This document shows positions 2,862 through 62,200 of a stretch of 64,000 nucleotides of DNA, in pieces; position 1 is the first letter of the stretch, and each line of letters begins with the position of its first letter. Origin of the DNA: Sandaracinaceae bacterium (GTDB lineage Bacteria > Myxococcota_A > Polyangia > Polyangiales > JAFGIB01); NCBI GenBank assembly GCA_017881055.1, contig JADGRF010000013.1, forward strand, positions 75,201 to 139,200. The letters are read 5' to 3'. A program made the position numbers and the translations under genes. A model generated the notes under the pieces. The model was not told where the DNA came from and ran no database searches. It saw only the letters and a program-made list of their open reading frames with translations.

Positions 2862-5800
2862 GTACTTCAGGCGAAGAGAAGTTTGACAAGGGTGGAGAGC
2901 AGCCTTCGGCTCTCTCCACGAGCAAGCGCGTGTTCTGGCGCAGCTTGGAGCAGAAGCAGGATCCGTCGTACGGCGCCGAAGACAACTCCGGCTCCGATGT
3001 CGTGAAGCAGACGATCGCGGGCGATGAGCTTTTCAAGCTTCGTCGTCGCAACTTCCTCACGTTGAGCGGCGCGATGACGGCGCTCGCCGGCGTCGAGGGC
3101 TGCATCCGTCGGCCGGTCGAAAATATCATGCCGTACACCGACATGCCGGAGTACGTGAACCCCGGCGTGCCGCTGCACTACGCCACGGTCATGAACCGCA
3201 ATGGCGCTGCGCTCGGCCTGGTCGTGACGGCGCACGAAGGTCGCCCGACCAAGATCGAAGGCAACCCGGACCATCCGGCGAGCTTGGGCAGCACCGATCT
3301 GATCGCGCAGGCGTCGATCTTGGACCTGTACGATCCGGAGCGCGTGCAGAAGCCGCTCGCGAGCAAGGTGAGCTCGACGTTCGCGGACTTCGACGCGTTC
3401 TTGACCGGCAAGCTCGGGGAGCTGTCGAAGAAGCAGGGCGCGGGCCTGCGCGTGCTCGCGCAGCCGAGCAATTCGCCGAGCTTTCTGCGTATGCGCAAGG
3501 CGCTGTTGGCGAAGCTGCCGCAGGCACGTGTGCACACGTACGCGCCCGTGAACCAGAGCAACGCGCGCCTCGGCGCGAAGATCGCGTTCGGTCGCAGCGT
3601 TGCAACTGTCAACGACTTCACGGCTGCGCGCGTGGTGCTCTCGCTCGACTCGGACTTCCTGATGACGGAAGCCGGCAGCGTGCTCGCGTCGCGTCAGTTT
3701 GCGCAGGCGCGCAACCTGGACTCCGCCGCGGGCGACATGAATCGTCTGTACGTGGTGGAGCCGGCGCTCTCGGTGACGGGCAGCAACGCCGATCACCGTC
3801 TGCGCGTCGCGGCGCAGGACGTCGTGCGTTACACGCGCGCGCTGGCTGCAGAGCTCGCGACACAGGGCATCGAGCTTGGCAATGCCGTCGGTGCCGTGCG
3901 CGGTGCGTCGAGCGAGGGCATTCCGGACACGTGGATCAAGGCCGTCGCGAAGGATCTCGTATCGAGCCGCGGCGCGGTGTTGATCGTCGCGGGCTCACGC
4001 CAGCCGCCCGAGCTGCACGCCCTGGTGAGCTTGCTCAATCGCGCGCTAGGCGCGTCGGGCCGCACGGTCACGTACGTCGAGCCGCTCGATGCAGATGACG
4101 GCGACAACTTCGCCGACGTGCGCGCGCTCAGTGACGACATGGCGGCCGGTAAGGTCGACACGCTCGTGATCCTCGGTGGCAACCCGGTGCTCGACGCGCC
4201 GGCCGATCTGAAGTTCGGTGCCGCGCTCAGCAAGGTGCCGACGAGCATTGCGTGTTCCACGTACCCGGACGAGACGGCGGACGCATGTTCGTGGGTCGTG
4301 CCGCTCGCGCACGAGCTCGAGACCTGGGGCGATCAGCAGACGGCGTTCGGACACTACGCGGTTCAGCAGCCGCTGCTCGCACCGCTCTGGGGCGGACGCA
4401 GCGAGCTCGAGCTGCTCGGTCAGCTCGCGAGCGAGCCGGCCTGGCGCGGTCACGAGGTCGTGAGTGCGACCGCCGAAGAGCACGGCATCAAAGGCGAGAT
4501 CGCGTGGCGTACGTTGCTCCACCGCGGTGTGGCCGACACGACGTTCGCGACGGTGCTCGGCGCGCTCTCGGTCGATGACCGTGCGGTAGCGCAAGCCCTG
4601 CAGAAGGCGGGCGATGCGCCTGCGCTCGGCAAGGGCAACCTCGAGGTCGTGTTCGCGCCTGACAACAAGCTGTTCGACGGCCGGCACGCCAACAACAACT
4701 GGCTGCTCGAGCTGCCGGATCCGATCACGCGCATCACGTGGGACAACGTGGCGATGATCGCGCCGACGACCGCGCGCGAGCTCGGCCTCAAGGCGGGCGA
4801 CATGATTCGCCTGACGCGTGGCGATGCGTCGATCGACATCGCGGCCTGGCCGCAGCCCGGCATCGCCAACAACACCGTGTCGCTCTCGCTCGGCTGGGGT
4901 CGTAAGCGTGCCGGCAAGAACGGCAACGGCTGCGGCTTCGACGTGTACCCGCTGCGCTCCAGCACGGCGCCGGGCTTCACGGCCGGTGTGTCGCTGAGCA
5001 AGCTCGACAAGAAGTACAAGATCTCGCAGACGCAGGATCACGATCAGATGCGCGACACGCGCGTCGAGAAAGAAAACCGCCCCCTCGCGCTCGACGCGAC
5101 GCTCGCGCAGTACAAAGCGAGGCCGAACTTCGCCGAGTACAAGTCGCCGGATCCCGAAGGCGGTCCGCTCTGGATCGGTCAGGACTATACCAAGGGCCAG
5201 CAGTGGGGCATGGTGGTCGACCTCAACACGTGCACCGGCTGCAACACGTGCGTGATCGCGTGTCAGTCGGAGAACAACGTGCCGGTCGTCGGCAAGGAGC
5301 AAGTCGCTCGCGGCCGCGAGATGCACTGGTTCCGCATCGACCGCTACTACGTCGGCGAGAACGAAGACGAGCCGGAGGTGGCGTTCCAGCCGCTTGGCTG
5401 CCAGCACTGCGAGAACGCGCCGTGCGAGAACGTGTGCCCGGTCGCGGCGACGTCGCACAGCCCCGAGGGCTTGAACGACATCGCGTACAACCGCTGCATC
5501 GGCACGCGCTACTGCATGAACAACTGTCCGTACAAAGTGCGCCGCTTCAACTTCTTGAACTTCAATCTCGACATCCCCGAGACGAAGCAGATGCAGTTCA
5601 ACCCGAACGTCACCGTCCGGTTTCGCGGCGTGATCGAAAAGTGCAGCTACTGCGTGCAGCGCATCCAGGGTGCGAAGATCGTGGCGAAGCAGCAGGGCCG
5701 TCGCGAGATCAAAGAAGGCGACCTGAAGTCCGCGTGCCAGCAGGCCTGTCCCGCCCACGCGATCGCGTTCGGCGATTTGAACGACGCCAGCAGCGAAGTC

Positions 5801-5910
5801 GCTCGTTGGTACAAGCGCGATCGTAACTACGCGTTGCTAGCGGACATCGGTACGCGCCCGCGCACGCGGTTCCTGGGCAAAGTTCGCAATCCGAACCCGG
5901 AGATGAAGTC

Positions 5911-5914
<4 letters not shown>
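2858..5914 (+). CDS. actB: Alternative complex III subunit ActB (molybdopterin-oxidoreductase-like domain fused to a Fe-S domain)
   Basis: ATG 2858 overlaps the actA stop (ATGA); WRSLE motif, Tat signal [17 protein letters not shown]-terminal CTGCNTC / CQHCENAPC / CIGTRYC Fe-S motifs. Confidence 0.95.
2892..2919 (+). repeat. Palindromic element (family 1) in frame within the actB 5' end
   Basis: GTGGAGAG-C-AGCC-TTC-GGCT-CTCTCCAC, perfect outer stem; encodes GEQPSALST. Confidence 0.8.
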
Positions 5915-7344
<1,430 letters not shown>

Positions 7345-7354
7345 GGAGGGCGAC

Positions 7355-7912
7355 ATGACCGACGACAACAAACAAAAGCGTCCCGTCGTGCTGCTGGCAG
7401 AGTTCGACTCGCCGGATTCGATCATCCACGCCGCCGAGAAGGTCCGCGACGCGGGCTTCGAGAAGTGGGACGTTCATACCCCGTATCCCGTGCACGGGAT
7501 GGATGCGGCGATGGGCCTGACCGACTCGCGTCTCGGCTGGATCGTGCTCCTGTGCGGGCTCACCGGCGTGACCGCGGCCGTCACCATGATGCAGTGGATG
7601 AACGGCTACGACTACCCGCTCGTGATCGCCGGCAAGCCGCCGGATGCCATCCCGTCGATGGTGCCGATCATGTTCGAGCTGACGGTGCTCTTGGCGTCGT
7701 TCGGCGCGGTGTTCGGCATGTTCGGCTTGAACGAGCTGCCCAAGCACCACCACCCCGTTTTCGGCTCGGACCGCTTCGAAGCCTTCTCACACGACAAGTT
7801 CTTCGTTTCGATCGAGGTCGAGGACAAGAAGTACGACGCGGAGAAGACGCGCGCGCTCCTCACGGACGCCCACGCGACCTACGTCGAGCTCGTTGAGGAG
7901 GAAGTAGCGTGA
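7355..7912 (+). CDS. actD: Alternative complex III subunit ActD (DUF3341)
   Basis: TPYPVHG and IAGKP motifs, two TM helices, position in operon. Confidence 0.93.
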   Translation: MTDDNKQKRPVVLLAEFDSPDSIIHAAEKVRDAGFEKWDVHTPYPVHGMDAAMGLTDSRLGWIVLLCGLTGVTAAVTMMQWMNGYDYPLVIAGKPPDAIPSMVPIMFELTVLLASFGAVFGMFGLNELPKHHHPVFGSDRFEAFSHDKFFVSIEVEDKKYDAEKTRALLTDAHATYVELVEEEVA

Positions 7913-8505
7913 CAGCGCTCAATCTTAGTTCGCGCATCTTGGGCTTGGGCCTGGTCGTACTGGCGTCCAGCGCGTGTCGCGGTCAGACGTCGTCCGAGCC
8001 GCCGCTCGTGCCCGAGCGCAACATGTACATGCAGCAGCGCTACAACCCGCAGTCGCGCAGCACGTTCTTCGAGGACGGACGCACGATGCGCAAGCCCGTC
8101 GAGCACACGTTCGCGCGCGAGATGAACCCGAGCGCGGAGATCTCGGATGGCGAGCTTGCCGACGGAAGCGGCTACGTACTCGCGGTGCCTGACGCCGTGG
8201 TGCAAGACTTCGGCGGCATGGCCAACGTGGTCGACCGCGGTCAAGCGCGCTTCGGCATCTACTGCGCGCCGTGCCACGATTTGACAGGCAGTGGCAAAGG
8301 CAAAGTCGTCGAGCGTGGCATGGCACCGCCGCCGAGCTTCCACGACGACCGCATCCGTCACATGCCGGACGGTCAGATGTTCGCGACCATCAGCCACGGC
8401 GTGCGCAACATGCCTCCGTACAACTATTCCATTCCAGTCAACGATCGCTGGGCGATCGTGAGCTACGTGCGAGCACTCGAGCTCAGCCAAGCCGGGGAGC
8501 ACTGA
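7909..8505 (+). CDS. actE: Alternative complex III monoheme lipoprotein cytochrome c ActE
   Basis: Lipobox (SSAC), single CAPCH, MPPY axial Met region, DRWAIVSYVRAL. Confidence 0.92.
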   Translation: MTALNLSSRILGLGLVVLASSACRGQTSSEPPLVPERNMYMQQRYNPQSRSTFFEDGRTMRKPVEHTFAREMNPSAEISDGELADGSGYVLAVPDAVVQDFGGMANVVDRGQARFGIYCAPCHDLTGSGKGKVVERGMAPPPSFHDDRIRHMPDGQMFATISHGVRNMPPYNYSIPVNDRWAIVSYVRALELSQAGEH

Positions 8506-8506
8506 C

Positions 8507-9856
8507 GTGGGCGACCAGACCAAGAAGCAATTCATGATTCCGGACGGCAGCGTCTGGGCGAACGCGTGGAAGATGACCGCCATGTTGGGCGGCGTCGGTA
8601 TCCTCGTTGCGCTCTACGGTGCGTTCCAGCAGCCCGAGCGCTTCGCGTACTCGTACCTGTACGGCTTCATCACCGTGCTCACTCTCTGGCTCGGCTCGGT
8701 GTTCTTCGTGCTGATTCAGCACCTGACCGGCGCCGGCTGGAGCGTTTCGGTGCGGCGTGCGGCGGAGTTCTTCGTCAGCGCTGCGTGGATCCTGCCGGTG
8801 TTGTTCGCGCCCGTCGCGCTCAACACGAGCACGCTCTATCACACGTGGTGGAACCACCCGGCGACGGAGCAAGGCGTTGCCCACGCGCAGGAGCACGAAG
8901 CTGCTGCGGAAGCCGGCGGCGATCGCGCGGGTGCAGAAGCAGCTGCACCCGAGGGCCATCACGGCTACGAGGGCGGCTCGGGTCCTTCCGAAGCGCACGA
9001 GTTGCTCGAGGACGCCAACATCGCGGGCAAGTCGGCGTACTTGAACCACGGCTTCTTCTACTTGCGCATGCTGCTGTACTTTGCCGTCTGGTTCTGGCTC
9101 GGCAGCCGCCTGTTCGGCTACTCGGCCGCGCAGGATGCGACCGGCGACAAGAGCTACACCGTGAAGCTGCAGAGCATGGCGCCAGTCGCCACGTTCGCAT
9201 TCGCGCTGTCGCTGACGTTCGCGGGCTTCGACTGGGTGATGTCGCTGCAGCCGGGCTGGTACTCGACCATGTTCGGCGTGCGCATCTTCGCGGCCTCGGC
9301 GGTCACGTCGTTCGCCGTGATCATCCTCGTGACGCTCGGCTGGAAGCGTGCGGGCCTGATCGGCAACGAGATCAACACCGAGCACTATCACGACCTGGGC
9401 AAGCTGATGTTCGGCTTCCTGATCTTCTGGGCGTACATCTCGTTCAGCGAGTTCTTCCTGATCTGGTACGCCGCGATCCCGGAAGAGACCGTGTACTACC
9501 ACCTGCGCTGGGACCACGACTCGTGGAAGATGATCAGCTGCTCGCTCGTAGCGCTGAAGTTCATCGTGCCGTTCTACTTGGTGATGTCGCGCAACGCGAA
9601 GCGCAACAACGGCTTGATCGGTCTCGGTGCCGGCTGGATCCTGGCCATGCACTTGGTCGAGATGTACTACTGGGTCATGCCGTACTACCGCCCGCACGAG
9701 GCGGTGCAGTGGAGCGGCGTGTGGATGGAAGTTGGCTGCGTCATGGCCACGCTCGGCGTGTTCCTGACCGTCGTGTTCCGCCGCATGCTGAAGCACCCCC
9801 TGATTGCGGTGGGTGATCCCCGCCTGTCGCGCGCGCTGAACTTCCAGAACATGTGA
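8507..9856 (+). CDS. actF: Alternative complex III membrane subunit ActF
   Basis: About 10 TM helices; DWVMSLQPGWYSTMFG, HDLGKLMFGF, IWYAAIPEET motifs. Confidence 0.93.
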   Translation: MGDQTKKQFMIPDGSVWANAWKMTAMLGGVGILVALYGAFQQPERFAYSYLYGFITVLTLWLGSVFFVLIQHLTGAGWSVSVRRAAEFFVSAAWILPVLFAPVALNTSTLYHTWWNHPATEQGVAHAQEHEAAAEAGGDRAGAEAAAPEGHHGYEGGSGPSEAHELLEDANIAGKSAYLNHGFFYLRMLLYFAVWFWLGSRLFGYSAAQDATGDKSYTVKLQSMAPVATFAFALSLTFAGFDWVMSLQPGWYSTMFGVRIFAASAVTSFAVIILVTLGWKRAGLIGNEINTEHYHDLGKLMFGFLIFWAYISFSEFFLIWYAAIPEETVYYHLRWDHDSWKMISCSLVALKFIVPFYLVMSRNAKRNNGLIGLGAGWILAMHLVEMYYWVMPYYRPHEAVQWSGVWMEVGCVMATLGVFLTVVFRRMLKHPLIAVGDPRLSRALNFQNM

Positions 9857-9901
9857 TACGCGGTCTGTCTTCGGGTGCGCGAACCCGTCTGCCTGACACG
9901 A

Positions 9902-9944
9902 GAGGCCCTCGAAATACGCAGAGTATTTCGGGGGCTTTCTCTTT
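9902..9944. terminator. Long hairpin after actF, likely (bidirectional) intrinsic terminator
   Basis: GAGGCCCTCGAAATAC-GCAGA-GTATTTCGGGGGCTTT followed by CTCTTT; lies between convergent genes. Confidence 0.6.
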
Positions 9945-9973
9945 GGGGCAGCCCCGAGGCTCGTTCGTGAGGC

Positions 9974-10990
9974 TCAGCCGCTGACGGCTGCAGCGGCGCG
10001 ACGGCGCATCAGCTTGTAGATGCCGAACGCGACCAGGCCGATCAGCACTGCGAACCAGAGCGTCGCGATGCGAACCAGAATCGTGGCGGCCGTGGCGACA
10101 GTGCGTGAAATCGCGCTGCCACCGAGTGCCTGCAGAAGGCCTGTCATGCTGCCCTCGGTGACACCGAGGCCGCCGGGCATCATTGCGACTGCACCGGCGA
10201 TGGTCGAGGCGGAGTATGCGAACACGGCGCTGTCCCACGCCAAGTGCGTACCGGGAAAGCCGCGCACGATCGAGTACAGCGCCGCGCACTCGAGGCCCCA
10301 AGCCATCAGCGCGATTAGCGTGCCGATGAAGAGCGGGGCGGGACGCAGCATCGTGAGCAGCGAGTCGTAGGCTTCCCGCAGGCGGTGGCTGATCTTCGAG
10401 ATCAGCGGCAGCTTCTCGGCGATGCGCAGGAGCAGCTCGCCGAGCGGCCGGTACGCGCAGACCGTGAACAGCCCAGCCACCAGCAGCGCGCCGGTGGCAG
10501 CTATCGCCGGGCCGTGCTCGAACGTGAGCGAGCCGAGCGCGGTGAGCATGACCAGCGCGATCAGATCCGTGAGGCGCTCGGCGACCACGATCGGCGCGGT
10601 TCGTGCGATGGACACGCCGCGCGACTCGTACAGCAGCACGGACTTGAAGACCTCGCCGACCTTGCCGGGGGTCACGCTCATCACGAAGCCCGACAGGAAC
10701 ACCACCGCGCTCTCACCGACCGGCACGCTCACGTCGATGCAGCTCAAGTAGTAGTGCCAGCGCACGATGCGCAGGGCGTAGTTGCCGGCGGCCAGCGCGA
10801 AGCCGAGCGCTACGGCACGGGGCGCGAAGCTCTGTGCGGCCCGCAGCAGCGCATGCACGTCGCTGTAGATCATCAGCGCGGCGACCACGAGACCGCCGAA
10901 CACGGCGCCAATGATCAGCTTACGCGCGAGACCGCGGGTGAGGGCGGAGGCCGATGGGGCCGCGATTTCTTCTGGGGCTAGGGGAGTCAA
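9974..10990 (-). CDS. UPF0104 / lysylphosphatidylglycerol synthase TM-domain (flippase-like) membrane protein
   Basis: Hydrophobic ORF with RIVRW, TPGKVGEVFK, ERLTDL, PGGLGVTEG motifs; TTG start at 10990 is inferred (the ORF-track start overlaps pgsA). Confidence 0.85.
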   Translation of the reverse strand: MTPLAPEEIAAPSASALTRGLARKLIIGAVFGGLVVAALMIYSDVHALLRAAQSFAPRAVALGFALAAGNYALRIVRWHYYLSCIDVSVPVGESAVVFLSGFVMSVTPGKVGEVFKSVLLYESRGVSIARTAPIVVAERLTDLIALVMLTALGSLTFEHGPAIAATGALLVAGLFTVCAYRPLGELLLRIAEKLPLISKISHRLREAYDSLLTMLRPAPLFIGTLIALMAWGLECAALYSIVRGFPGTHLAWDSAVFAYSASTIAGAVAMMPGGLGVTEGSMTGLLQALGGSAISRTVATAATILVRIATLWFAVLIGLVAFGIYKLMRRRAAAAVSG

Positions 10991-11159
10991 AGCGAGCGCG
11001 CGAGAAGGTGCCACGGAAGGGTAATCCTCGCCAATCGCCAAGCGCGCGCAATAGTAGGCGTCGCGCGCGTGTGGGTTGCCCCGAACGGACTTGTCGACCA
11101 ATAATGCGACGGTCGAGCTACGCGACGCCACGCGCGCGGGCGCGTGCGCCACCAAGAGC

Positions 11160-11825
11160 ATGGCCCAGGATCCCATCAAAGCCGCGCGGCGCCGTACGCT
11201 GCGCGAGGACGCGCTGAATCTGCCGAACCTGCTCACGATGGGGCGGGTGATCATGATTCCCGTCGTCCTGTGGCTGATGGCCCAGGAGACGCGCGTCGGA
11301 AACTTCTGGGCCACGATGACGTACTCGGCCGCGGCCGTGACCGATTTCATCGACGGGTACCTGGCGCGCCGCATGGGCCTCACCAGCTTGCTCGGCAAGT
11401 TCCTCGACCCGCTGGCCGACAAGCTGATCGTGCTCGCGACTCTCGTCATGATGGTCGAGCTCGGTCACGTCTCGGCGGTACCCGTGATCATCATTGCCGG
11501 GCGCGAGCTGTCGATCACGGCGCTGCGCACGATTGCGATCAGCGAGGGCGTGGTGATCGCCGCAAGTCGCGGTGGCAAGGACAAGACCGCGGTGCAAATG
11601 AGCGCGCTGGTCGCGCTGATCCTGCACGACACGTACATGCTCGACTTCGGTTTCTATCGCGCGGTCGTGAACCTGAATGCGGTCGGCATCGGTCTTTTGT
11701 ACTTGAGCGTGTTCTTCGCGCTAACCAGCGCGGGCGAGTACGTCGGGTTGTTCGTCGATGCGGTCGAAGCCAAGGAAAAGCGCGAACGCGAGCGCGACGA
11801 TGCGCAGAAGCCTGCGGGAGAATAG
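11160..11825 (+). CDS. pgsA: CDP-diacylglycerol--glycerol-3-phosphate 3-phosphatidyltransferase
   Basis: NLPNLLTMGR, DFIDGYLARR-x6-LGKFLDPLADK CDP-alcohol phosphotransferase signature, GKDKT. Confidence 0.92.
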   Translation: MAQDPIKAARRRTLREDALNLPNLLTMGRVIMIPVVLWLMAQETRVGNFWATMTYSAAAVTDFIDGYLARRMGLTSLLGKFLDPLADKLIVLATLVMMVELGHVSAVPVIIIAGRELSITALRTIAISEGVVIAASRGGKDKTAVQMSALVALILHDTYMLDFGFYRAVVNLNAVGIGLLYLSVFFALTSAGEYVGLFVDAVEAKEKRERERDDAQKPAGE

Positions 11826-11830
11826 GTCCC

Positions 11831-22091: not shown

Positions 22092-22541
22092 GTCGGAGCG
22101 GACCAGGTGATCGTCGGCTTCTTTAACTGTCCCGAGCTTCGGTTCGGGGGAAGAAAGAGCGGGAGGAAAGTCCGAGCTCCAAAGGACAGAATGCCGGTTA
22201 ATGGCCGGTGGGGGCGACCCCGAGGAAAGTGCCACAGAGAATGAACCGCCTTGGCCAATCACATACCCACCGAGCAGCCTTCGGCTCTCGGCGGACTACG
22301 GGGTTGCACAAGGTAAGGGTGAAAAGGCGAGGTAAGAGCTCACCGGGTCGGCGGTAACGTCGATCGCTAGGCAAACCCCATTCGGAGCAAGACGAAATAG
22401 GGAGGCGTTCGAGGGCGGTCCGCCCGAGCCTCCGGGTAGCGTCGCTCGAGGCGTGCGGTAACGCGCGTCCTAGATGAATGATCACCACCCGCATCCCGGC
22501 AACGGGTGCGGGAACAGGACTCGGCTTACGGTCCCTCCGAC
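22092..22541 (+). ncRNA. rnpB: RNase P RNA (type A), about 450 nt with extended P3 and P12
   Basis: GAGGAAAGTCCG, GGAAAGTGCCACAGA, GGTAAGGGTGAAA, GGCAAACCCC..GAGCAAG, ACAGGACTCGGCTTAC; ends pair (GTCGGAG/CTCCGAC). Confidence 0.96.
22261..22294 (+). repeat. Palindromic element (family 1) inside RNase P RNA P12
   Basis: ACATAC-CCACCGAG-C-AGCC-TTC-GGCT-CTCGGCGG. Confidence 0.8.
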
Positions 22542-22543
22542 CT

Positions 22544-45246: not shown

Positions 45247-46986
45247 ATGTGCAGAAACCGAACACGTTGGTCGCTACTGACATACCCGCAGAGCAGCCGC
45301 TGGCTCTCTGCGGCGGTGACATACCCGCAGAGCAGCCGCTGGCTTTCTGCGGCGGTGACATACGCCGCACTGGCGCTCGTGGGCATTTCCGCGCCGGCCT
45401 TTGCGCAAGACATGCAGTTCGGCGTCGAGGAAACCGGCGCCGCGCCTTCGGGTCCGCCGGGTGAGGGCCCGCCCTCCGAGGCGCTCGCGAACGCGCTGCG
45501 TCTCTACACGCAGGAGCGCTATCCCGAGGCCTCGGTGCAGTTCCAGCGCGTAGTCGAAGGCGAAACGCCCGACGCGCCTGCCAACGTGCAGAAGTCGCAG
45601 TTCTTCTTGGGCAAGTGTCTCTACCATTTACACTACTACCAGTCGGCGCTCGCGGTGTTCGACGAGATCTCGGAGCAGGGCCGCAAGCATGTGTTCTTCG
45701 ATCAAACGCTGCAGTGGCTCGCGCAGCTAGCGTCGCAGCTGCCAGAGCCCGCAGGCATCATCGACAAGATTGGCCGCTTCGGTGTCGATCAGCTCGAGCA
45801 GTTCAACACGGCAGACAACGCCGATCTGTACAACCAGCTGCTGTATTTGATGGGTCGCTCGAAGTACAACCAGGGCGAGTTCGACAAGGCGATCGAGCTG
45901 TTCGAGAAGATCGACAAGCGTAACAAGTGGTACATCAAGGGCCGCTTCTTCGAGGGCATCTCGTACATCCGTATGCGCAAGGCGCAGCCGGCTGCCACGG
46001 CGTTCCGTTCGATCATCGATGCGATCGACGACGGTGACGTCGATGGCGTGGACGATGCAGAGCGCATGCGCGACCTCGGCTGGATCTCGCTCGCTCGCGT
46101 CTATTACACGGCGGCGAACAAGACGACGCCCGAGGGCGAGCGCAAGGTCGACGGCGTGTTACTCGGCAACGCGGTCGAGGCCTGGACGAAGATCGACAAC
46201 GACAGCGAGTACTGGCTGGACTCGCTGTTCGAAGCTTCGTGGGCCTTCTTCCTCGCGGACGAATACTCGCGTGCGCTTGGCAACGTGCACACGTTGAACT
46301 CACCGTACTTCAAGGGCTCGTTCTATCCGGAAGCGACCGTGCTCAAGGCCGTGGTCTTCTTCTCGAACTGCCAGATGAAGAACGCGACCGCGACGATCCA
46401 GTACTTCCATGAGCACTACGATCCGGTGAAGACGAAGCTCGACGAGATGCTCGCCAAATACAAAGACAACGCGCAGTTCTTCGAATTCTTGAAGAAAGTG
46501 CGTTCCGGCGATGCGAACTTGCCGCAGGAAGTGCGCGGCATCGTCACGTCGGCGCTGTCGGATCGTTCGGTGCTCGCGAACCTCGAGTACGTGACGTTGC
46601 TCGAGCAGGAAGAGAAGACGCTCAGCAAGTCGCCGTCGCAGTTCTCCAGCTCGTCGCTGGGCGCGCGCATCTTGCAGGACATCCTGGTCGCGAAGTCGTT
46701 CGCGGTCGACCAGGCCGGTGACACGGCCAAGGCTCGCTACAACCGCTTGATCGACGAGATGCAGGATCTCGCGAACCAGGCGGATACGGTCGAGATCGAA
46801 ATCCTCAACTACGAGCGTGGCGAGATGAAAGCCTCGCTCGCGGAATCGCAAGCTGCTGCCGGTCAGTCGACCGGTGGCAAGGTCTTCGTCTCCTCGGAGC
46901 ACAACGTTTGGCCGTTCAACGGCGAATATTGGCGCGACGAGCTCGGCTACTACCGTCAGGAAGTCACTTACCAGTGCAGAAGGTAA
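45247..46986 (+). CDS. gltC: Adventurous gliding motility TPR protein GltC
   Basis: GGAG RBS; signal peptide (lengthened by a repeat insertion); TPRs; C-terminal WPFNGEYWRDELGYY; context. Confidence 0.72.
   Translation: MCRNRTRWSLLTYPQSSRWLSAAVTYPQSSRWLSAAVTYAALALVGISAPAFAQDMQFGVEETGAAPSGPPGEGPPSEALANALRLYTQERYPEASVQFQRVVEGETPDAPANVQKSQFFLGKCLYHLHYYQSALAVFDEISEQGRKHVFFDQTLQWLAQLASQLPEPAGIIDKIGRFGVDQLEQFNTADNADLYNQLLYLMGRSKYNQGEFDKAIELFEKIDKRNKWYIKGRFFEGISYIRMRKAQPAATAFRSIIDAIDDGDVDGVDDAERMRDLGWISLARVYYTAANKTTPEGERKVDGVLLGNAVEAWTKIDNDSEYWLDSLFEASWAFFLADEYSRALGNVHTLNSPYFKGSFYPEATVLKAVVFFSNCQMKNATATIQYFHEHYDPVKTKLDEMLAKYKDNAQFFEFLKKVRSGDANLPQEVRGIVTSALSDRSVLANLEYVTLLEQEEKTLSKSPSQFSSSSLGARILQDILVAKSFAVDQAGDTAKARYNRLIDEMQDLANQADTVEIEILNYERGEMKASLAESQAAAGQSTGGKVFVSSEHNVWPFNGEYWRDELGYYRQEVTYQCRR
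45279..45363 (+). repeat. Two tandem 39-nt palindromic elements (family 1) plus a terminal GACATAC, in frame in the gltC signal peptide
   Basis: GACATACCCGCAGAGCAGCCGCTGGCTYTCTGCGGCGGT x2, then GACATAC; encodes TYPQSSRWLSAAV x2. Confidence 0.9.
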
Positions 46987-46988
46987 TC

Positions 46989-52857: not shown

Positions 52858-54969
52858 TTGGAGGCTGTGGTGCCGATTCCGATTACGTTTCACATCTTTC
52901 AGGGTGACCAGGTCGAGCGCACCGAAACGCTCGCACAGGACGTCATCAAGATCGGCAAGCTCGACTCGAGCCACTTGAAGATCGACGACGAAGGCGTCTC
53001 GCGCATGCACTCGGTGATCGAGGTGTCGGGACACGGCGAGGTCTTCATCATCGATCTCGGGTCTGCGACGGGCACGATCGTCAACGGTCAGCGCGTGAAC
53101 AAAACGCGCCTCGAGACCGGCGATCAGCTCCAGTTCGGCAGCACGCGGGTTGCGATCGAGATCGGCGAAGCGGTGCAGGCGGAAGCGCCGCGTCAGCCAG
53201 CGTCGATGTCGCGTCCGCCTCAGGCACAAGCCGCGTTGCCGAATCCGTTCGGCGCACCTGCCCAAGGCAGCGCACCGGGCTTTGGTGCAGCGCCGGGTCT
53301 GCCGAATCCGTTCCAGACGCAAGCCGGTTATGCTGCGCCGCAGCAGAGCTATGGCCAGCCCGCCTACGCGCAGCAAGACTACGGTCACCAAGTCTACGGT
53401 CAACAAGACTACGGTCAGCAAGCCTACGGCCACCAGGAGCACCAGTACGAGCACGACGGTGACGTGGACAGCGAGCACGTCATGTACCAGCTCGTGCCGC
53501 AGACGCCACCTGTGAATCCGGCGGACGTCGACAGCGGCGAGTCCGCGGTCGAGGTCGTGATCCTGTGGGGCGAGCTGAGCATCCTACACGTCGAGCACTT
53601 GTCGCCGCCGCGCGCGTTCTACGTGGGCGATGCAACTGACGGCAAGGGCAAGTCCACGACGGACTACCTGATCGGCAGCGAGAGCCTCGGCACCGAGCGC
53701 TTCCCGGTCGTCGTCGAATCGGGCTCGACCGTCGCAGTCACGATCCCGAACGGCGCAACGGGTGACATCACCGTCGGCAACCAGCAAATCACGGTCGAGG
53801 AGCTCGCTGCGCAAGGCCAGTTGCAAGCCTCGGCCGAGCTGGCGGGCGCCAAGCAGTACCCGCTGCCGGCGGGTGCGACCGCGCGCATTCAATACCGCAA
53901 CTTCACGTTCATCGTTAAGCCGACGTCGGCAGCGCGCCGCGTCGGGATCGGTGAAGGTCATCGCATCGACTGGATGGGCTATGTCTGGACGATCGCGTCG
54001 ATGGCGCTGCACATTGGCCTTCTGCTGCTCTTCTACTTCCTGCCCCCGCGCTCTTCCTCGCTGTCGCTCGATCTCCTCAACGCCGACTCGCGCTTGGTCA
54101 AGTACTTGATCGAGCCGCCGGAGACCATGGAGGAGGAAACTCCCGAGTGGCTGCAGGAGAACAAGGACGACGACGAGGGCGGCAAGGGCAAGAAGCACAA
54201 AGACGACGAAGGCCAGATGGGCAAGAAGGACGAGAAGAAGACCAAAAACAAGTTTGGTATTCAGGGTCCTCAAGATAACCAAGATCCCCACATGGCTCGC
54301 GACGAGGCTAAGGAAGCCGCGGCGAACGCCGGCATCATCGGCATCCTGAAGGCGAACGTCGGTTCGTTCGATTCGCCTACCTCTCCTTACGGTAAGGACT
54401 CGGCGCTCGGCGCCGACCCGATGAGCGCGCTCGGTGCGCTCATGGGCGACCAAATCGGTGGCAACTTCGGCTTCGGCGGTCTCGGCCTGCGGGGTACCGG
54501 TCGCGGCGGCGGTGGTACCGGCGAAGGCACCATCGGCCTCGGCAACATCGGCACGATCGGCCATGGCGCCGGCGGCGGCACGGGCTCGGGCTACGGCAGC
54601 GGCGCGGGTGGTTTCCACGGTCGTGACGCCAAGGTGCCCCGCATTCGCAGCGGCCAGGCGGACGTCCATGGTTCGCTGTCCAAGGAAGTCATTCGCCGTA
54701 TCATCGGCCGTCATATCAACGAGATTCGGTTCTGCTACGAGCAGGAGCTGAACACGCGTCCGGACCTGCAGGGCCGCGTCTCGATCAAGTTCATCATCTC
54801 GCCAACGGGCGCCGTGCAGACGGCTGCCGTCGACAACTCGGACCTCGGTAACGCGAAGGTGGAGCAGTGCATGGCGCAGGCCGTGCGTCGCTGGACCTTT
54901 CCGGCGCCTGAAGGCGGCGGCATCGTCGTGGTCAGCTATCCGTTCGTGCTCGCACAGACCGGCGGCTGA
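52858..54969 (+). CDS. gltG: GltG: FHA domain, TM helix and TonB/TolA-like C-terminus
   Basis: IKIGKL..VSRMHSVI..DLGS..GT.VNG FHA; single TM; Gly-rich linker; GSLSKEVIRRII..CYE..RVSIKF..G.V TonB_C; true start may be GTG 52870. Confidence 0.85.
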   Translation: MEAVVPIPITFHIFQGDQVERTETLAQDVIKIGKLDSSHLKIDDEGVSRMHSVIEVSGHGEVFIIDLGSATGTIVNGQRVNKTRLETGDQLQFGSTRVAIEIGEAVQAEAPRQPASMSRPPQAQAALPNPFGAPAQGSAPGFGAAPGLPNPFQTQAGYAAPQQSYGQPAYAQQDYGHQVYGQQDYGQQAYGHQEHQYEHDGDVDSEHVMYQLVPQTPPVNPADVDSGESAVEVVILWGELSILHVEHLSPPRAFYVGDATDGKGKSTTDYLIGSESLGTERFPVVVESGSTVAVTIPNGATGDITVGNQQITVEELAAQGQLQASAELAGAKQYPLPAGATARIQYRNFTFIVKPTSAARRVGIGEGHRIDWMGYVWTIASMALHIGLLLLFYFLPPRSSSLSLDLLNADSRLVKYLIEPPETMEEETPEWLQENKDDDEGGKGKKHKDDEGQMGKKDEKKTKNKFGIQGPQDNQDPHMARDEAKEAAANAGIIGILKANVGSFDSPTSPYGKDSALGADPMSALGALMGDQIGGNFGFGGLGLRGTGRGGGGTGEGTIGLGNIGTIGHGAGGGTGSGYGSGAGGFHGRDAKVPRIRSGQADVHGSLSKEVIRRIIGRHINEIRFCYEQELNTRPDLQGRVSIKFIISPTGAVQTAAVDNSDLGNAKVEQCMAQAVRRWTFPAPEGGGIVVVSYPFVLAQTGG
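53341..53430 (+). repeat. Six 15-nt coding repeats, (Q/H)-x-x-Y-G/A pentapeptides
   Basis: QQSYG QPAYA QQDYG HQVYG QQDYG QQAYG. Confidence 0.8.
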
Positions 54970-54976
54970 TGTTTTC

Positions 54977-55070
54977 ACATACCCACGAAGCAGCCTTCGG
55001 ATCTTCCTTCGGCTCTTCGCGGGTGACATGCCCGCGAAGTAGCCTTCGGTTTTTCCTTCGGCTCTTCGCG
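54977..55070 (+). repeat. Two tandem 49-nt palindromic elements (family 1, extended loop) just after the gltG stop
   Basis: ACATRCCCRCGAAG-YAGCC-TTCGGWTYTTCCTTC-GGCT-CTTCGCG x2. Confidence 0.88.
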
Positions 55071-55095
55071 TAGGGAGTGTCCGTGTCTGACAATC

Positions 55096-55135
55096 GAGCG
55101 GAACCTCGACCCGAGGCTCCGCTCTTTGTTTTTTT
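55096..55135 (+). terminator. Intrinsic terminator after gltG
   Basis: GAGCGGA-A-CCTCG-ACC-CGAGG-C-TCCGCTC followed by TTTGTTTTTTT. Confidence 0.85.
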
Positions 55136-55225
55136 GCTCGTGTTTCTATTCGTGAATTTGCGGTTGAGGTTCTGGGGCGGACTCCCGTACGCTCCCAGGG
55201 CCGCCTTTCTGAAGGAGCCATCCAG

Positions 55226-56119
55226 ATGAAGCGTGTTCAATTGGTCGGAGTGGGTATCGCCACGTTGCTGATCTCCATGGCAGGCGACTGCTCGCGGGCC
55301 CGCGTCGAATCCATCAACAAGATGAACGAAGGCGTTACTGCGGCTGTGCAGAAGCGCTACGCCGACGCTACCAAGTTGCTCGAGAGCGCGGCCGTCGTCG
55401 ATCCCGAGAACGACCAAGTGTTCTGGAACTTGTCGCTCGTGCACATGGAGCTGCACAAGTTTGACAAGGCGCGCGACGATCTGAACAAAGCCATCGCGCT
55501 CAACGCGAAGTCGGGCGGCTACCAAGAGAAGCTCGGCACGATTCTGATCGAGCTCAAGGACTGGGCTGCTGCCAAGTCCGCGTTCGAGAAGGCGATCGAG
55601 CTCGAGCCTGGGCTGTTCAAGGCGTACTACAAGCTGGCGCAGGTGAACGAGCAGCTCGACGATCAACAGAGCGCGCTCAAGAACTACACGACGGCGATCG
55701 ACAAGGGGTCGCGGTTCCTCGAGGCGTACAATGCGCTCGGTCGGTTGTACGCGGACCTCGGTTACCTCGATCAGTCGGTGCAGGTGCTTCAGGAGGCGAT
55801 GAAGGTCGCTCTGCCGGGCACGGAAGAAGAAGCGCAGGCGCATCATCTTCTCGGCACGGTTTATCAGCAGCAGAAGAAGTATGATGACGCGGTGCGCGAG
55901 TTCAAAGCCGCGCTCGATGTCGTTCCGGGGATGCGTGATGCGCTCTTCTCTCTCGGCTGGACGTACCAGCTGCAGGGCAACAAAGAAGAGGCCAAGCGCT
56001 ACCTGCAGAAGTTCGTGGACGTGGCGGGCGCCGAGGCGCCTGCGCACTACGTGAAGGCCGCGCGTGACAAGATTGCCGAGATGGCGGAGGGCTTCGCAAC
56101 CTCCGCTTCGAATCAGTAG
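55226..56119 (+). CDS. Exported TPR-repeat protein
   Basis: AAGGAG RBS; signal peptide ending AGDC; tandem TPRs. Confidence 0.85.
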   Translation: MKRVQLVGVGIATLLISMAGDCSRARVESINKMNEGVTAAVQKRYADATKLLESAAVVDPENDQVFWNLSLVHMELHKFDKARDDLNKAIALNAKSGGYQEKLGTILIELKDWAAAKSAFEKAIELEPGLFKAYYKLAQVNEQLDDQQSALKNYTTAIDKGSRFLEAYNALGRLYADLGYLDQSVQVLQEAMKVALPGTEEEAQAHHLLGTVYQQQKKYDDAVREFKAALDVVPGMRDALFSLGWTYQLQGNKEEAKRYLQKFVDVAGAEAPAHYVKAARDKIAEMAEGFATSASNQ

Positions 56120-56126
56120 TGGGTTC

Positions 56127-56187
56127 GCGAGCACGCTCGCGGCCTACGTGCTTGGGTTGGCGAGCACGCTTGCGGCTAGCGTGCTCT
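56127..56187. repeat. Two tandem hairpins (33-nt period), distinct from families 1 and 2
   Basis: GAGCACG-CTCGCGGCCTA-CGTGCTT and GAGCACGCT-TGCGGCT-AGCGTGCTC. Confidence 0.7.
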
Positions 56188-56209
56188 AAGCGGATCTCAG
56201 GAGGCTTCG

Positions 56210-59200
56210 GTGTCGGATAACGACGGTTCTGTTTCCAGTCAGGCCGAGGAGGAAGTACACAATTCAGGGGCCCAGAGCGCGGGGAACGGCGCGGGTGCCA
56301 CTGGCAATCCCGGGCCCGCTGCCGTCGCTGGCGGTGTAGCCGAGAAACGCGAGCTGACCGACGCCGATCACAAGAAGGTCGCCGAGTTGTCGGACGCGAT
56401 CGAAAAGTTCACCGCGCAGAAGCGCTGGTCGGACGTGATCAAGTCGACGCTCCAGAAGGCCGAGATCGTCGTCGATCCCGCGCAGAAGGTGGAGCTGTTT
56501 GCCGAAGCCGGGCGCATGTATATCGAGCGCTCGTCGAACCAGGCGGAGGCGATCAAGTGCTTCTCGCGCGTGCTGGAGATCGATCGCTCGAACATCGAAG
56601 CGATCACGCATCTCAAGGACATGTACGAGAAACGGCGCGACTGGGAACGCCTAGTCGACGTGATGCGTGCGGAATGCGACCTGCTCGACGCCAGCGATCA
56701 GCCTGCGCGGCGCCTGGAGATCGCGCAGCTCGCGAACGAGAAACTGCGTAAGCCGAACGTTTGCATCGACCTGTGGAAGGACGTGGTCGCGGTCGACGGC
56801 GAAAACCCGGAAGCGCTGAACGCTCTGTCGGGCCTGTACGAGCGCGCGCGCGAGTGGGCGCCGCTTGCGGACGTGCTCGACAAGCAGAGCCAGCTCGCGA
56901 AGAGCCCTGCGGACCAAGTCGCGATCCTGCAGAAGCTCGGTAACGTGTACTCGGAGAAGCTTCAGGACGACGACGGCGCGCTCGGCGCGTACAAGCGTCT
57001 GCTCGAGCTCGATCCGAACGACCGTCGTGCGCAGGAGCAGCTCAAGAAGCGCTGGGTTGCGACGGGCGCGTGGGACGAGCTCGAAGCGTTCTATGAGGCA
57101 ACTGACAAGCTCGACGAGCTGATCCGTACGCTGGAACGCGCCGCGGACGCCACCACGGCCGAGCTGGCGGAGCGCATCGCGCTGCACTTCCGGATTGCGC
57201 GCCTGTGGCAAGAGAAGAAGGGTGCGGCGGATCGCGCTGCGCGTGCGTACGAGAAGGTGCTCACGCTCGATGCGAGCAACCTGCAGGCAGCCGAGGCGCT
57301 GTCTCCGATCTACGAGCAAGCGGGCGACGCCAAGAAGCTCGTCTCCGTGTGCGAAGTGCGACGCGGCCACGCGGAGGATCCCGATGCGCGCGTGGTGCTG
57401 CTGCGCGAGATCGGCCTTCTGTACGAGGAGAAGCTGCGTAACCCGCAGCTGGCGTTCGATCGCTTCTTGGAAGCCTTCGTGGTCGATCCGAAGCAAGACG
57501 TGTTGCGCGACGACCTCGAGCGCTTGGCCGGCAAGGTCAACGGCTGGGATCGCGTGTTTGCTGCGTTCGACAAGGCGATCGAGGACGCCGGCCATCCGGA
57601 CGACGCCAACGATCTGCGTCTGCACTACGGTCGCGCGCTCGCGAGTCAAGGCAAAGGTCCCGAGGCGACCAAGCAGTTCCGCGCCGTGTACGACGACCGC
57701 GCGGATGACGCCGCCGCGATCGCTGCGTTGGAGAAGCTGTATCGCGAGGCGGGCGACTTCCAGAATTTGCTCGGGGTTTTGTTGCGTCGCTCGGAGCTCG
57801 AGTCGGATGTCGAGACGCGCAAGGCTCTCGCGTACGGCATCGCGAAGCTCTGGCACGAGAATCTGAAGAACGCCGAGCAGGCCATCGAGGCCTACAAGAA
57901 CATCCCGATCGAGTTCGGCGAGGGTGAGGTCGAGGCGTATCGCGCGCTCGATTCGCTCTACGAGCAAGAGGAGCGCTTCGACGACCTCACGCAGACGCTC
58001 GAGCATCGCATCGACATGGGGCCCAGCTCGGACGAAGAGCTGGCGGGCCTGAAGTTCCGCTTGGCGGGTGCGCTGCATCTGCACCTCGGTGACAAGGCGC
58101 GCGCGATCGACCTGTATCGCGAAGTGCTCACGCTCGTGCCCGATCACGACGGCGCGCTCGGCGCGCTCGAATCGCTGCTCGACGACAAAGAGCTGGGTGG
58201 CCAGGCCGCGGGGATTCTCGTCGAGCTCTACGAAGGTCGCAGCGAGTGGGCGAAGCTCGTCACCGCGCTCGAGGTCTTGCTCGAGTTCACGTCCGAGGTT
58301 GATCAACGCATCGATCTGATCACGAAGATGGGCGAAGTTCGCGCCGAGCAGCTCGGCGATGGTGCTGGTGCGTTCACAGCGTATTGCCGTGCGTTCGAAG
58401 AAGCGCCGGACAACCTCGGGATCGTGGCGCGCTTGGAAGTGCTCGCGAAGGAGCAGAAGCGCCTTGGTGACATGGTGCGTTTGGTCGAGGCGCGTGCTGC
58501 GAAGATCGAAGATCAGGCGCTGGTCCGTCAGCTGCTGATCAAGGCCGCTGGGCTCTACGACAACGAGCTGGGAGACGTCGAAGCGGCCGTCAAGGCGTAC
58601 ATGACGGCGCTCGAGCGTGATCCGGGCGACGAGGAGATCCTCGGCGCGCTCGAAACGCTGTACCGGCGCACCGAGCGTTGGCGTGACCTGCTCGACGTGC
58701 TGCGTCGTCGCGCGTCGATCACGTCGAACCCGGCGGTGCAAGAGCAGCTGCTCGCGCAGATGGCGTTCATTCACGACGAGATGCTGAGTGAGCCGGATGC
58801 GGCGATTCGCATCTACGCGGAGATTCTCGAGCTGGATCCGGCGAGTCGTACGGCGCTCACTGCGCTCGATTCGCTCTACGAGCGGCAGAAGATGTGGAGC
58901 GAGCTGGCGGACAACGTCAACCGCCAGCTCTCTCTTGCCGAAGGCAGTGAAGAGCAGATTTCCTTGATGCTGCGCTTGGGCCTTCTGCGCGAGACGCGCA
59001 TGAACGCGCCCGAGGCTGCGATCGAGATCTATCGCGAGATCTTGGAGCGCGATCCGTCGCATTCCGAGGCGCGTGGCGCGCTCGAGCGGCTGATCGAGCG
59101 TCCTCCGTATCAGGTGCAGATCGCGGAGATCCTCGAGCCGCTGTACCGCGATGCGAACGAGTATCAGAAGCTGATCGGTATTCACGACATCCAGGTGAAG

Positions 59201-62200
59201 AACAGCCCGTCGACCGATCAGCGCGTCGAGCTGCTGCACCGCATGGCGGAGCTGTACGAGATCGCGCTCGACGACGCAGGCGGTGCGTTCAAGACGTTCG
59301 CGCGCGCGCTCGCTGAGGATCCTACCAATCCCACCACGCGTGATCAGCTCGATCGCCTAGGCATCAGCGCTGGCTCGCACGAAGCGCTGGCGCAGGTTTA
59401 CGAAGCGCAGGTGCAGGGCGCGACGGATCCCGCCGTGCTGGTCTCGTTGCACAGCAAAGCGGCTCAGATCCGTGAAGAGTCGCTCGGCGATGCCAATGGT
59501 GCGATCGGTCATTACCGGCGCGTGCTGGAGGTCGACGCGGCGAACCTCGATGCGGCGAGCGCGCTCGAACGCCTCTACCAGATGGCGGAGCGCTACGACG
59601 ACTTGGCGTTGATCTACCTCACGAAGTCGGCGCTGCTGACGGCGTCCGATGAGCGGAAGGACTATCTGTTCCGCGCCGGTGCGATCTACGAAGAAGTGCT
59701 GGAGCTTCCCGACGCAGCGATCGAAGTGTATCGGCGCGTGCTCGAGATCGAGGAGGATGATCTCCGCGCTCTCGACAAGCTGATCCAGCTGCACCTCAAG
59801 CTCTCGCAGTGGGAGAAGCTGCTCGGCGTGTATGGCCAGAAGGCCGACGTCGTTTCGGATCCCGATGAAAAGAAGGCGCTCTACCTGCAGATCGGTGGCG
59901 TCTACGAGCGCGAGCTGAAGCAGACCGAGAAGGCGATCGAGACGTATCAACGCGTGGTCGAGCTCGACCCCGACGACATAGCGGCGCTCGGACGCTTGGA
60001 TGCGTTGTTCCTCGCCAGTGATCGCTCCGAAGATTTGCTTTCGATCTTGGAGCGTGAAGCAGAGCTCGTGAGCGAGCCGCTGCAGGCGATCGACTTCCGC
60101 TATCGCATCGGTGAGCTGCACGAGCGTAAGCTGAACGACGCGTTCCGTGCCGTGGATGTGTACCGCGAGATCCTCGACGTAGTGCCCGATCACGCGGCCA
60201 CGCTGGCTGCGCTCGAGCGCATGATCGACGAAGAGCGCGAGCCAGTGGCGGCTGCGTGGGTGCTGGAGCCGATCTACCGCGCGTCGGTCGATTCGGCGCG
60301 CTTGTCGCGTTCGCTCGAAGTGCTGATCACCCACGAGGAAGATCCGGTCCGCAAGGTCGAGCTGCTCCATCAGGTGGCCGAGATCTACGAGGTACACCTC
60401 GAAGAGGGGCGTAAGGCGTTCGGCGCGTTCGCGCGTGCGTTCCCGGTCGACAGTCAGAACGAGAACACGCTGGCTGCGCTCGAGCGCTTGGCTGAGCGGT
60501 TGAACGCGTGGGGTGACCTCGCGACGCTCTACGACAAAGAGATCACGAGGCTGCGCGCCGACTCGCCGGGCATGGCGATCGATCTGGCGCTACGGCTTGC
60601 ACAGATCTTCGAAGTGCAGCTCGGCGATGTCGATGCCGCGATTGCTCGCTATCGCATCGTGTTCGAGACCGATCCTGCGCACGCGCAGGCCGTCGAGGCG
60701 CTCGAGCGCTTATACGAGGCGAGCGAGCGTTGGGAGCCGTTGGCCGAGATCCTCGAGCGCAAGGTCGAGATTGCGGGCAGCCCGGACGAGCTTCTGGCGA
60801 TTCACTTCAAGCTCGGTCAGCTGCTCGAGCATCGGCTCGGCAAGGTCGAGAAAGCAGTCGATCGCTATCGCGAGATTCTCGCGGCCGCACCTGAGCACGA
60901 AGAGGCGCTGCGCGCGCTCGAAGGCTTGTTTGGGAAGGGCGTGTTGCCGACCGAGATCGGCGAGATCTTAGAGCCGCTCTATCGCATGCAGGAGGCCTGG
61001 GATCGCCTGGTCGGTGTGCACGAAGTCGAGCTGCGCTCGCTCGCCGACAATAAGCAACGCGTGCTGATGATGCACCGAATAGCGGAGATCGCGGAGGAGC
61101 GCGCGAACGATCACGCGCTGGCGTTCTCGTGGATTCAGAAGGCGTTGATGGAAGATGCGACCAGCGATCATTCCATCTCGGAAGCAGAGCGCCTCGCTCC
61201 CATCGTGTCAACTGGAACAGCCTCCGGCTCTCCAGACAACGGCTTCGCGGTGCTGGCGAACACGTACGCGGTGATCGCGGAACAGCATGCCGAGAAGGAC
61301 GTTCGCATCGCGATCGCCAAGCGCCTGGCGCGTGTGTATGGCGAAGAGCTGCAGGACGTGGCGCGCGCCGAAGAGGCGTATCGCTACGTGATCGCGATGG
61401 ATGATCGCGACGAGGACGTGCTGATCGCGCTCGACAACATCTACACGGATCACGGTGCCGGCGAGGCGCTGGCCGAGGTGCTGAAGAAGCGCGTCGCTGC
61501 GGCCTCGGACGCCCGTGAGAAGGTGGAGCTCAGCCACCGGCTGGGTAACGTGCTGTGGAACGAGTGTCGTCGCACGGACGAGGCGATCGAAGTCTATCGC
61601 CACGTGCTCGCGAAGCTCGACGCACAGCACGAGGACACGCTGCACGCGCTGCAGAACGTGTACACGGTCACGCAGCAGTGGCCGCAGCTGTTCGAGGTCT
61701 ACGAGAAGGAGCTCGATGTGGTCGTGGGTGACTCGGCGCAGGCCGAGATCCTGGGACGCATGGCGGTGCTCGCGGCCGGCAAGCTCAATAACTACGAGCG
61801 TGCCGTCGAGCTCCTGCGCAAGGTGCTCGACTTGCTCGGCGAAGATCACGAAGCGCTCAATGCGCTCGGCAACATCTACGCGCAGCAAGAGAACTGGACA
61901 GATCTCGTCGACGTGTTGGAACGCGAAGTCGCGGTCGCAGAGACCGACGAGATGCGCATCCAGATTTACGGCGACTTGGGCCGGATCTGGTACGAGAAGC
62001 TGCATCGTGATCGCAACGCGCTCGAGAGCTGGGAGCGCGTGCTCGACATCGATCCGAGCAACACGGATGCGTTGTTCGCGATCGCCGCGATCCATCGTGC
62101 CGCGGCCTCGTGGAACGACCTCGTGGACACGTTGCACAGGTTGGTCGACGTAGGCGCCGGTTCGATGTTTGTGGAGCAGCCTTCGGCTCTCCGCGGCGGG

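Follow-up and report, generated by a model that had tools for sequence, protein, structure and literature searches.

We describe a family of short hairpin repeats that occurs eight times in a 64,000-nt window of a Polyangiales genome (C270:75201-139200 of a 5.88-Mb, 341-contig assembly with 66% GC, hereafter G000), inside protein-coding genes, inside the RNase P RNA gene rnpB and between genes. All features of the window given below lie on its plus strand. We read these copies as members of a lineage-specific, non-autonomous hairpin repeat family of the repetitive extragenic palindromic (REP) type, a reading to which we give a probability of roughly 0.8. The window DNA is represented in permafrost metagenome runs, and the nearest named records to its ActB protein are metagenome-assembled genomes (MAGs) labelled Polyangiales, Sandaracinaceae or Myxococcales. 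A first-pass annotation of the window had located all eight copies where we find them, and its description of the unit holds: five copies carry ACATRCCC, direct reading confirms that all six frames of the core are free of stop codons, and all three sense frames are in use (EQPSAL, (T)ASGS and SSRWL).

The position table of the family gives the consensus T-N-ACATACCC-GCG-GAG-C-AGCC-T(T/G)C-GGCT-CTC-CGC-GG. The unit is about 36 nt long (range 27-39 nt). Its head, T-N-ACATAC(CC), is single-stranded and leads into a stem of 12 bp that has one bulged C and is closed by a U-N-C triloop; the tip, (A/G)AG-C-AGCC-NNN-GGCT-CT(C/T), shows almost no variation. The strict core GAGCAGCC-N3-GGCTCT matches the genome 111 times where base composition predicts 0.15, so that the copy number exceeds chance about 700-fold, as expected of a dispersed element. 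A broader regular expression, GAR[CT]AGCC.{3,15}GGCT[CT]T, has 130 matches, an nhmmer profile recovers 169 copies at E<=0.01 and 204 at E<=0.1, and a count anchored on the tip yields 183 copies with at least five contiguous Watson-Crick pairs, which puts the whole family at about 170-200 copies in G000. Several contigs terminate within repeat arrays, and the copy counts are therefore lower bounds. The copies fall into 115 loci, 76 of them singles and 39 head-to-tail arrays of 2-5 units each, and mixed orientation was seen in none of the 115. With 128 of the 169 copies at E<=0.01 placed between predicted genes, this short imperfect palindrome fits the broad sense of REP. A miniature inverted-repeat transposable element would have terminal inverted repeats and a target-site duplication; here the whole unit is a single hairpin. 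The arrays do not resemble a CRISPR array, as a period of 28-45 nt for a 36-nt unit leaves no spacers.

The family is confined to a narrow group of genomes. All genomes compared are fragmented MAGs, those of the carriers being 86-94% complete and broken at repeats. The core is present in 110 copies in G000, 112 in G001, 33 in G004 and 27 in G005; these four species belong to a single Polyangiales genus. It has zero copies in the congeners G002 and G003, 0-3 copies in 75 further genomes of the same family or order (among 80 relatives searched) and 0-2 copies in 400 Myxococcota genomes sampled across the phylum. This restriction to four species indicates a young, clade-restricted family. The carrier assemblies measure 4.5-6.6 Mb and those of the two repeat-free congeners 10.4 and 11.8 Mb, the latter with 8% estimated contamination, all within one GTDB genus.

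Comparison with orthologues shows that the coding copies of the window are insertions. The first (2892..2919) lies near the N-terminus of actB, the gene for alternative complex III subunit B (2858-5914), and is a headless hairpin, GTGGAGAG-C-AGCC-TTC-GGCT-CTCTCCAC, that encodes 10 residues and folds at -20.2 kcal/mol (z -4.2). The ATG of actB, which overlaps the stop codon of ActA (CCACCGATGAG), is kept in nine of the nine relatives inspected; the window protein has 23 residues before KRVFWRSLE vs 11-15 in these relatives, and the surplus is the hairpin-encoded GGEQPSALS. The second case is a gene for a GltC-like tetratricopeptide repeat (TPR) protein (45247-46986), in which two tandem 39-nt units lie one base apart (45278..45355), followed by a partial head (45356-45363). 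They read as 2 x TYPQSSRWLSAAV in the n-region of the signal peptide. In both G005 and G008 the start MCRNRT is kept, as is the GGAGA upstream of it; the 26 residues are missing, and the start leads straight to the hydrophobic region before AQDMQFG. This conservation of start and ribosome-binding site rules out that the GltC copies belong to a 5′ untranslated region with the true start at GTG 45355.

The third host is a gene for a giant GltI-like TPR protein that extends from 56210 to past the window end and contains two in-frame insertions, one of 30 nt at 61208..61237 (STGTASGSPD, with the hairpin CTGGAAC-AGCC-TCC-GGCT-CTCCAG) and one of 39 nt at 62159..62197 (GSMFVEQPSALRG; nhmmer E 7.7e-6). 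In the latter the left arm has decayed to TTGTG and pairing is kept via G-U. The insertions appear as clean gaps of 10 and 13 residues in the orthologues of G005 and G008, and across this 2,600-residue alignment the gaps of at least 5 residues are these two sites and one N-terminal 7-mer only. The 7-mer itself (56315-56340, residues about 36-43) is a Gly/Ala/Pro-rich low-complexity insertion relative to G005 and G008, with no kinship to the hairpin family.

The same holds across the genome, where 27 of the 169 copies lie inside predicted genes, 26 of them in sense orientation, and roughly 85% of copies lie outside genes. We joined 18 in-gene flanking segments as one query and searched it in six relatives. 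At 15 of the 18 sites the relatives' orthologues are about 7-16 residues shorter (the exception being the PheS site in G005, with a value of 1), and one site holds an in-gene array of three units that the relatives lack; one more site was ambiguous, and the lone antisense case found no support as an insertion. Clean gaps are visible in the alignments of 11 sites, and about 20 in-gene sites in total are confirmed against orthologues. By their NCBIfam names the hosts include the glutamate synthase large subunit (GltB), CarB, TopA, a DEAH helicase, the leucyl- and alanyl-tRNA synthetases (LeuRS and AlaRS), HflX and PheS. The proposal that the coding copies are insertions is thereby borne out, with clean orthologue gaps of 9-16 residues in ActB, GltC, GltI and some 16 further proteins. 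Nearly all insertions are absent from the other three repeat-bearing species, which indicates that most post-date speciation; the exception is again PheS, where G005 has a decayed copy at the same site. As for the extent of the inserted segment, we considered whether one stem arm could be native target sequence. TopA, and perhaps LeuRS, agree with this; in the helicase and elsewhere both arms are inserted, and in most in-gene cases both hairpin arms lie within the inserted segment.

Three sense frames are used to very different extents. About 21 copies are read in the main frame, (H)IPAEQPSALRG, four independent events in the ASGSP frame and one in the SSRWL frame. Copies in frame add 9-14 residues and are found in N-terminal regions, signal peptides and variable stretches. 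The first-pass annotation had proposed that the element inserts in multiples of 3 nt. Our results do not bear this out: array periods outside genes are evenly spread over the residues 0, 1 and 2 modulo 3 (12, 9 and 12), and all in-gene periods are multiples of 3. The lack of a modulo-3 bias outside genes shows that being in frame reflects selection, that is, a filter on survivors, and is not a property of insertion.

A structural RNA has been invaded as well. The rnpB gene of the window (22095..22542, bacterial type A; Rfam RF00010, 286.8 bits) is 448 nt long vs 376-394 nt in relatives without the element. Its P12 helix holds a unit at 22260..22294, CACATACCCACC-GAG-C-AGCC-TTC-GGCT-CTC-GGCGG (nhmmer E 2.9e-8), which is an insertion relative to the Rfam model, sits at the apex of P12 and folds as an extension of that helix. 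An alignment of 11 rnpB genes finds the full P12 unit in G000, G001 and G005 and none in G002, G003 and six genomes of the same family, so that the rnpB copy, too, is an insertion missing from related genomes, as had been supposed. A second extension of 26 nt is located at the apex of P3 (22125..22150, AACUGUCCCGAGCUUCGGUUCGGGGG). It is absent in relatives lacking the repeat and may be a decayed unit, a relic of the repeat. The P3 apex carries one clear unit in G005 and two in G001, and in the G001 units the tip reads AGTC/GACT, so that the tip itself shows a compensated change.

In the orthologous P12 units the first outer pair is flipped, with compensation: it is C-G in G000 (ACC-GAG...CTC-GGC) and G-C in G001 and G005 (GCG-GAG...CTC-CGC). 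This subfamily difference suggests either that insertion may have recurred at a hot spot or that dispersed copies may have converted one another. In G005 a 112-kb syntenic contig contains only two units, both of them within rnpB. With 27 strict copies in 6.6 Mb we estimate an expectation of about 0.002 copies per 457-nt gene, and the double occupation of this rnpB is far from chance. A soil metatranscriptome contig covers 22212-22327 with 1 mismatch at a depth of 2, which is weak evidence that the P12 unit is present in RNA.

The hairpin is maintained even though its stem sequence is not. The triplets flanking the tip are GAG/CTC in 110 cases, AAG/CTT in 39, AAA/TTT in 27 and CAG/CTG in 21, and each uncompensated combination occurs at most twice. 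Among 114 distinct units, 91.4% of stem cells are paired and 117 cells are changed on both sides, vs 31.5 +/- 4.4 in shuffles, with the observed value reached in 0 of 500; structures shifted by 1-3 columns reach only 37-46% pairing. This covariation confirms the earlier claim that the outer stems vary between copies yet stay paired. G-U pairs outnumber A-C mismatches (42 vs 27), a difference that is not significant (p = 0.09), and the pairing constraint on the stem can for this reason not be assigned to RNA rather than DNA.

Outside genes the units follow transcription closely. When the unit is set as +, the flanking genes are +/+ at 52 loci, -/- at 5, convergent at 19 and divergent at 10, and in-gene loci are sense in 20 cases vs antisense in 1. 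Overall, orientation is about 10:1 sense relative to transcription. Replication-strand bias is rejected as its cause, as orientation tracks gene direction irrespective of GC skew (29:2), GC skew being a weak proxy. Of 115 arrays, 47 begin between -25 and +15 nt from an upstream stop codon on the same strand, 22 of these within 0-5 nt. Their heads often read TTAAT-, TGAGT- or TAGT-NACATACCC, and the unit itself thus supplies the stop codon (TAA, TGA or TAG). One gene end illustrates a related arrangement: at C223:4679 of G000 the protein ends in ...IYIPAEQ followed by TAG, a truncated unit giving the last residues and the stop and a full unit coming next. Units are also found 3-10 nt after tRNA-Leu, tRNA-His and one further tRNA, in the same orientation. 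On another contig of G000 (C253, 101-17342) six repeat loci punctuate successive co-directional genes, with units directly after rpsJ (ribosomal protein S10) and rpmE (L31), which were assigned by eye from the translations. When tmRNA and five long unit-bearing non-coding stretches were checked for structured RNA, only a tRNA beside one array was found.

These observations bear on a rival reading, in which the hairpin is mainly a functional RNA element (a 3′ untranslated or intercistronic stabiliser, a processing site or a protein-binding site), host benefit drives its spread and the copies in genes and in rnpB are by-products. The sense bias of about 10:1 holds inside and outside genes though the antisense frames are also stop-free, copies are concentrated immediately downstream of stop codons and of tRNA 3′ ends, the invariant tip with its bulged C is like that of a protein-binding hairpin, a unit is found in the cDNA contig of rnpB, and a role as RNA elements is presumed for the REPs found in other bacteria (PMC3733652). 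On the other hand, the G-U counts do not show that pairing is kept specifically at the RNA level, and no family in Rfam matches the repeat unit. The position table has no T enrichment at +20 to +28, so without a U-tract 3′ of the stem the unit is not a classical terminator; many copies lie within operons and genes. G002, G003 and the remainder of the phylum manage without the repeat, and a function would leave unexplained where new copies inside essential genes come from. We regard this reading as possible but doubtful.

Our reading as a mobile family of REP type has to be weighed against several points, which all count against it. A search with PF01797 (Y1 transposase and REP-associated tyrosine transposase, RAYT) covering the window genome and six relatives gave no match in G000 or G004, MAGs whose 86-94% completeness means that the gene could be missing, and the strong match in G005 belongs to an IS200 that has an unrelated hairpin at its flank. 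The DUF559 nuclease has weak matches that show no correlation with the repeat. A target-site duplication (GACATAC) is not general, since a partial head follows only 12 of 96 arrays. The orthologues share about 65-85% amino acid identity and are too diverged for base-exact insertion boundaries, and the statistics on orientation and distance depend on genes predicted with a home-made finder based on codon usage. Direct repeats were likewise not seen at 11 codon-threaded in-gene insertions, where the orthologues are too diverged to fix the ends to the base. The first-pass description of a non-autonomous mobile palindrome accordingly stands in part: insertions are species-specific and add new peptides, and mobility itself is what we infer from those insertions, neither an enzyme nor a target-site duplication having been found.

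It could also be that this is an ordinary REP family mobilised by a RAYT whose gene is missing from the incomplete assemblies. The anatomy is REP-like, with a conserved single-stranded 5′ head and an imperfect, bulged palindrome, about 10% of units end in GCGTAG, which resembles the GTAG tag, and the MAGs are incomplete and break at repeats. Yet PF01797 has no match in two of the four carriers and its matches in the other two, including two weak ones in G001, are not flanked by units. No RAYT flanked by the motif emerged from the search for RAYT and IS200 TnpA genes. There is no consistent GTAG or CGTC tag, and the uniform orientation of the arrays leaves the family without the inverted doublets (REPINs) typical of RAYT families. 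Finally, no transposon-like gene flanked by units was found: the sole inverted pair encloses ordinary, unrelated genes, and all other unit pairs that flank genes are direct and punctuate operons. Taken with these results, a RAYT lost to incomplete assembly is unlikely.

Under the REP-type reading that we prefer, the repeat would have arisen in one subclade of an uncultured Polyangiales genus and would have gone on inserting in every one of the four species independently, with local duplication producing the head-to-tail arrays. Copies persist after stop codons, between operon genes, 3′ of tRNA genes, in frame in proteins and in the apical loops of P12 and P3. Copying may proceed as a single-stranded hairpin through a trans-acting factor that reads the tip and that would not be a detectable RAYT. 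The sense bias of about 10:1 could result from insertion into the non-template strand of transcribed DNA or from selection on the transcribed hairpin. An undescribed mechanism that combines transcription-coupled insertion (either into the displaced non-template strand or by way of an RNA intermediate), a preference for apical loops, recognition of the tip only, and a stem re-made or symmetrised at each copying is a long shot. The preference for apical loops would account for the occupation of rnpB P12 and P3 and for the positions just after genes and tRNAs, and a stem re-made at each copying would explain stems that are copy-specific yet perfectly paired.

Such stems, of which there are 99 different 8-bp versions in the 183 tip-anchored copies, could also suggest that the copies are not mutually derived and arise in place (for example as template-switch palindromes), or are artefacts of assembly or binning, but this is scarcely credible: more than 100 places share an identical 14-nt tip and 6-8-nt head, which makes independent origin impossible, the family is found in four MAGs that were assembled separately as well as in an RNA-derived contig of a different study, and in most in-gene cases both arms belong to the inserted segment.

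Among described repeats, the closest are the GTAG and CGTC REPs surveyed by Di Nocera, De Gregorio and Rocco (2013), who catalogued intragenic REPs that supply stop codons in several phyla (PMC3733652). Those REPs lie mostly downstream of open reading frames, between co-directional and convergent genes, and some are read in frame as part of known proteins, tRNA synthetases, helicases and repair genes among them; for the CGTC super-family no transposase is known (PMC3733652). The present family shares with them an imperfect palindrome of 20-40 nt, a tag at one end, tens to hundreds of copies, termini that donate stop codons, a location mostly downstream of open reading frames, units in frame in tRNA synthetases and helicases and, as for the CGTC REPs, the lack of a known transposase. 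It differs in its tag, ACATAC(CC), in having no CGTC and a GTAG after the stem in only about 10% of units, and in forming head-to-tail arrays only, whereas GTAG/CGTC REPs are mostly head-to-head dimers. It also differs in its very strong sense bias and in its occurrence in Myxococcota and within RNase P RNA. With REPIN/RAYT systems (Bertels and Rainey 2011; Nunvar 2010) it has in common a conserved head 5′ of the hairpin, subfamilies whose stems are compensated and vertical persistence in a narrow clade; in contrast to them it has no inverted doublets, no detected RAYT gene and no REP-flanked transposase gene.

Rickettsia palindromic elements (RPEs) had been taken as the main precedent for insertion into genes. 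This needs revision, as in-gene REPs were already catalogued in several phyla, and the short RPE-4 and RPE-6 of Rickettsia are themselves CGTC-REPs (PMC3733652). RPEs still represent in-frame insertion at its most extreme (Ogata et al. 2000, summarised in PMC10969869). Both families insert in frame in unrelated housekeeping genes and add a conserved peptide. They are set apart by size (RPE-1 is about 100-150 bp, the present unit 27-39 nt), phylum and lifestyle, the present host being free-living with 66% GC and about 85% of its copies lying outside genes. RPEs have been reported in an RNA gene too.

Two further systems share single traits. The short tandemly repeated repetitive (STRR) sequences of cyanobacteria are tandem heptamers rather than hairpin units. 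Like the present family they are dispersed genomic repeats found in the P12 helix of rnpB, as far as can be taken from a review that cites Vioque (1997) for P12 being sometimes dispensable in cyanobacteria and whose reference list gives that paper a title on STRR repeats within the RNase P RNA gene (PMC2858038). The present case differs in that P3 is occupied as well and that the rnpB unit is the same as the one in proteins. Direct tandem arrays in operon spacers, oriented with transcription, are also a trait of the mycobacterial interspersed repetitive units (MIRUs). In Mycobacterium tuberculosis, these units, attributed to Supply and colleagues in 1997, are reportedly direct tandem repeats of 40-100 bp that are intergenic in operons, oriented with transcription and abutting stop and start codons. 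MIRUs are, to our knowledge, not hairpins, and we know of none in structural RNA genes.

Our literature search found no paper on REPs in myxobacteria and nothing directly relevant on palindromic elements in RNase P RNA. In-frame repeats are known from other bacteria and, in the literature searched, not for this phylum or this RNA. What is distinctive here is the phylum, the ACATAC tag, the exclusive use of direct arrays, the strong sense bias, the apparent lack of a RAYT and the repeated occupation of two rnpB helices. Our findings extend the notion of selfish DNA inside proteins from Rickettsia and some REP families to free-living, high-GC Myxococcota. At least three aminoacyl-tRNA synthetases, topoisomerase I, HflX and a signal peptide tolerate the same small unit, as does the RNase P ribozyme. 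Four carriers with independent insertions and two repeat-free congeners make a natural comparison set in which the mobiliser of a RAYT-less REP could be sought and the cause of the near-exclusive sense orientation tested. The rnpB copies offer a simple assay of extra helix load in P12 and P3. In practical terms, the units break assemblies and lengthen annotated proteins, and their recognition improves the annotation of Polyangia MAGs.

The last two copies of the window form an intergenic pair (54975..55070) that begins 5 nt past the TGA of a gene with FHA and TonB_C domains (52858-54969). The orthologous spacers of G005 and G008 contain no unit at this place. Both copies are of the GAAG/CTTC subfamily and have an expanded loop, AGCC-TTCGGATCTTCCTTC-GGCT. 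The loop, at 54990-55015 and 55040-55064, has grown from 3 to 15 nt (TTCGG-ATCTTCC-TTC and TTCGG-TTTTTCC-TTC, respectively), and these 15-nt loops resemble a small duplication or insertion nested in the tip.

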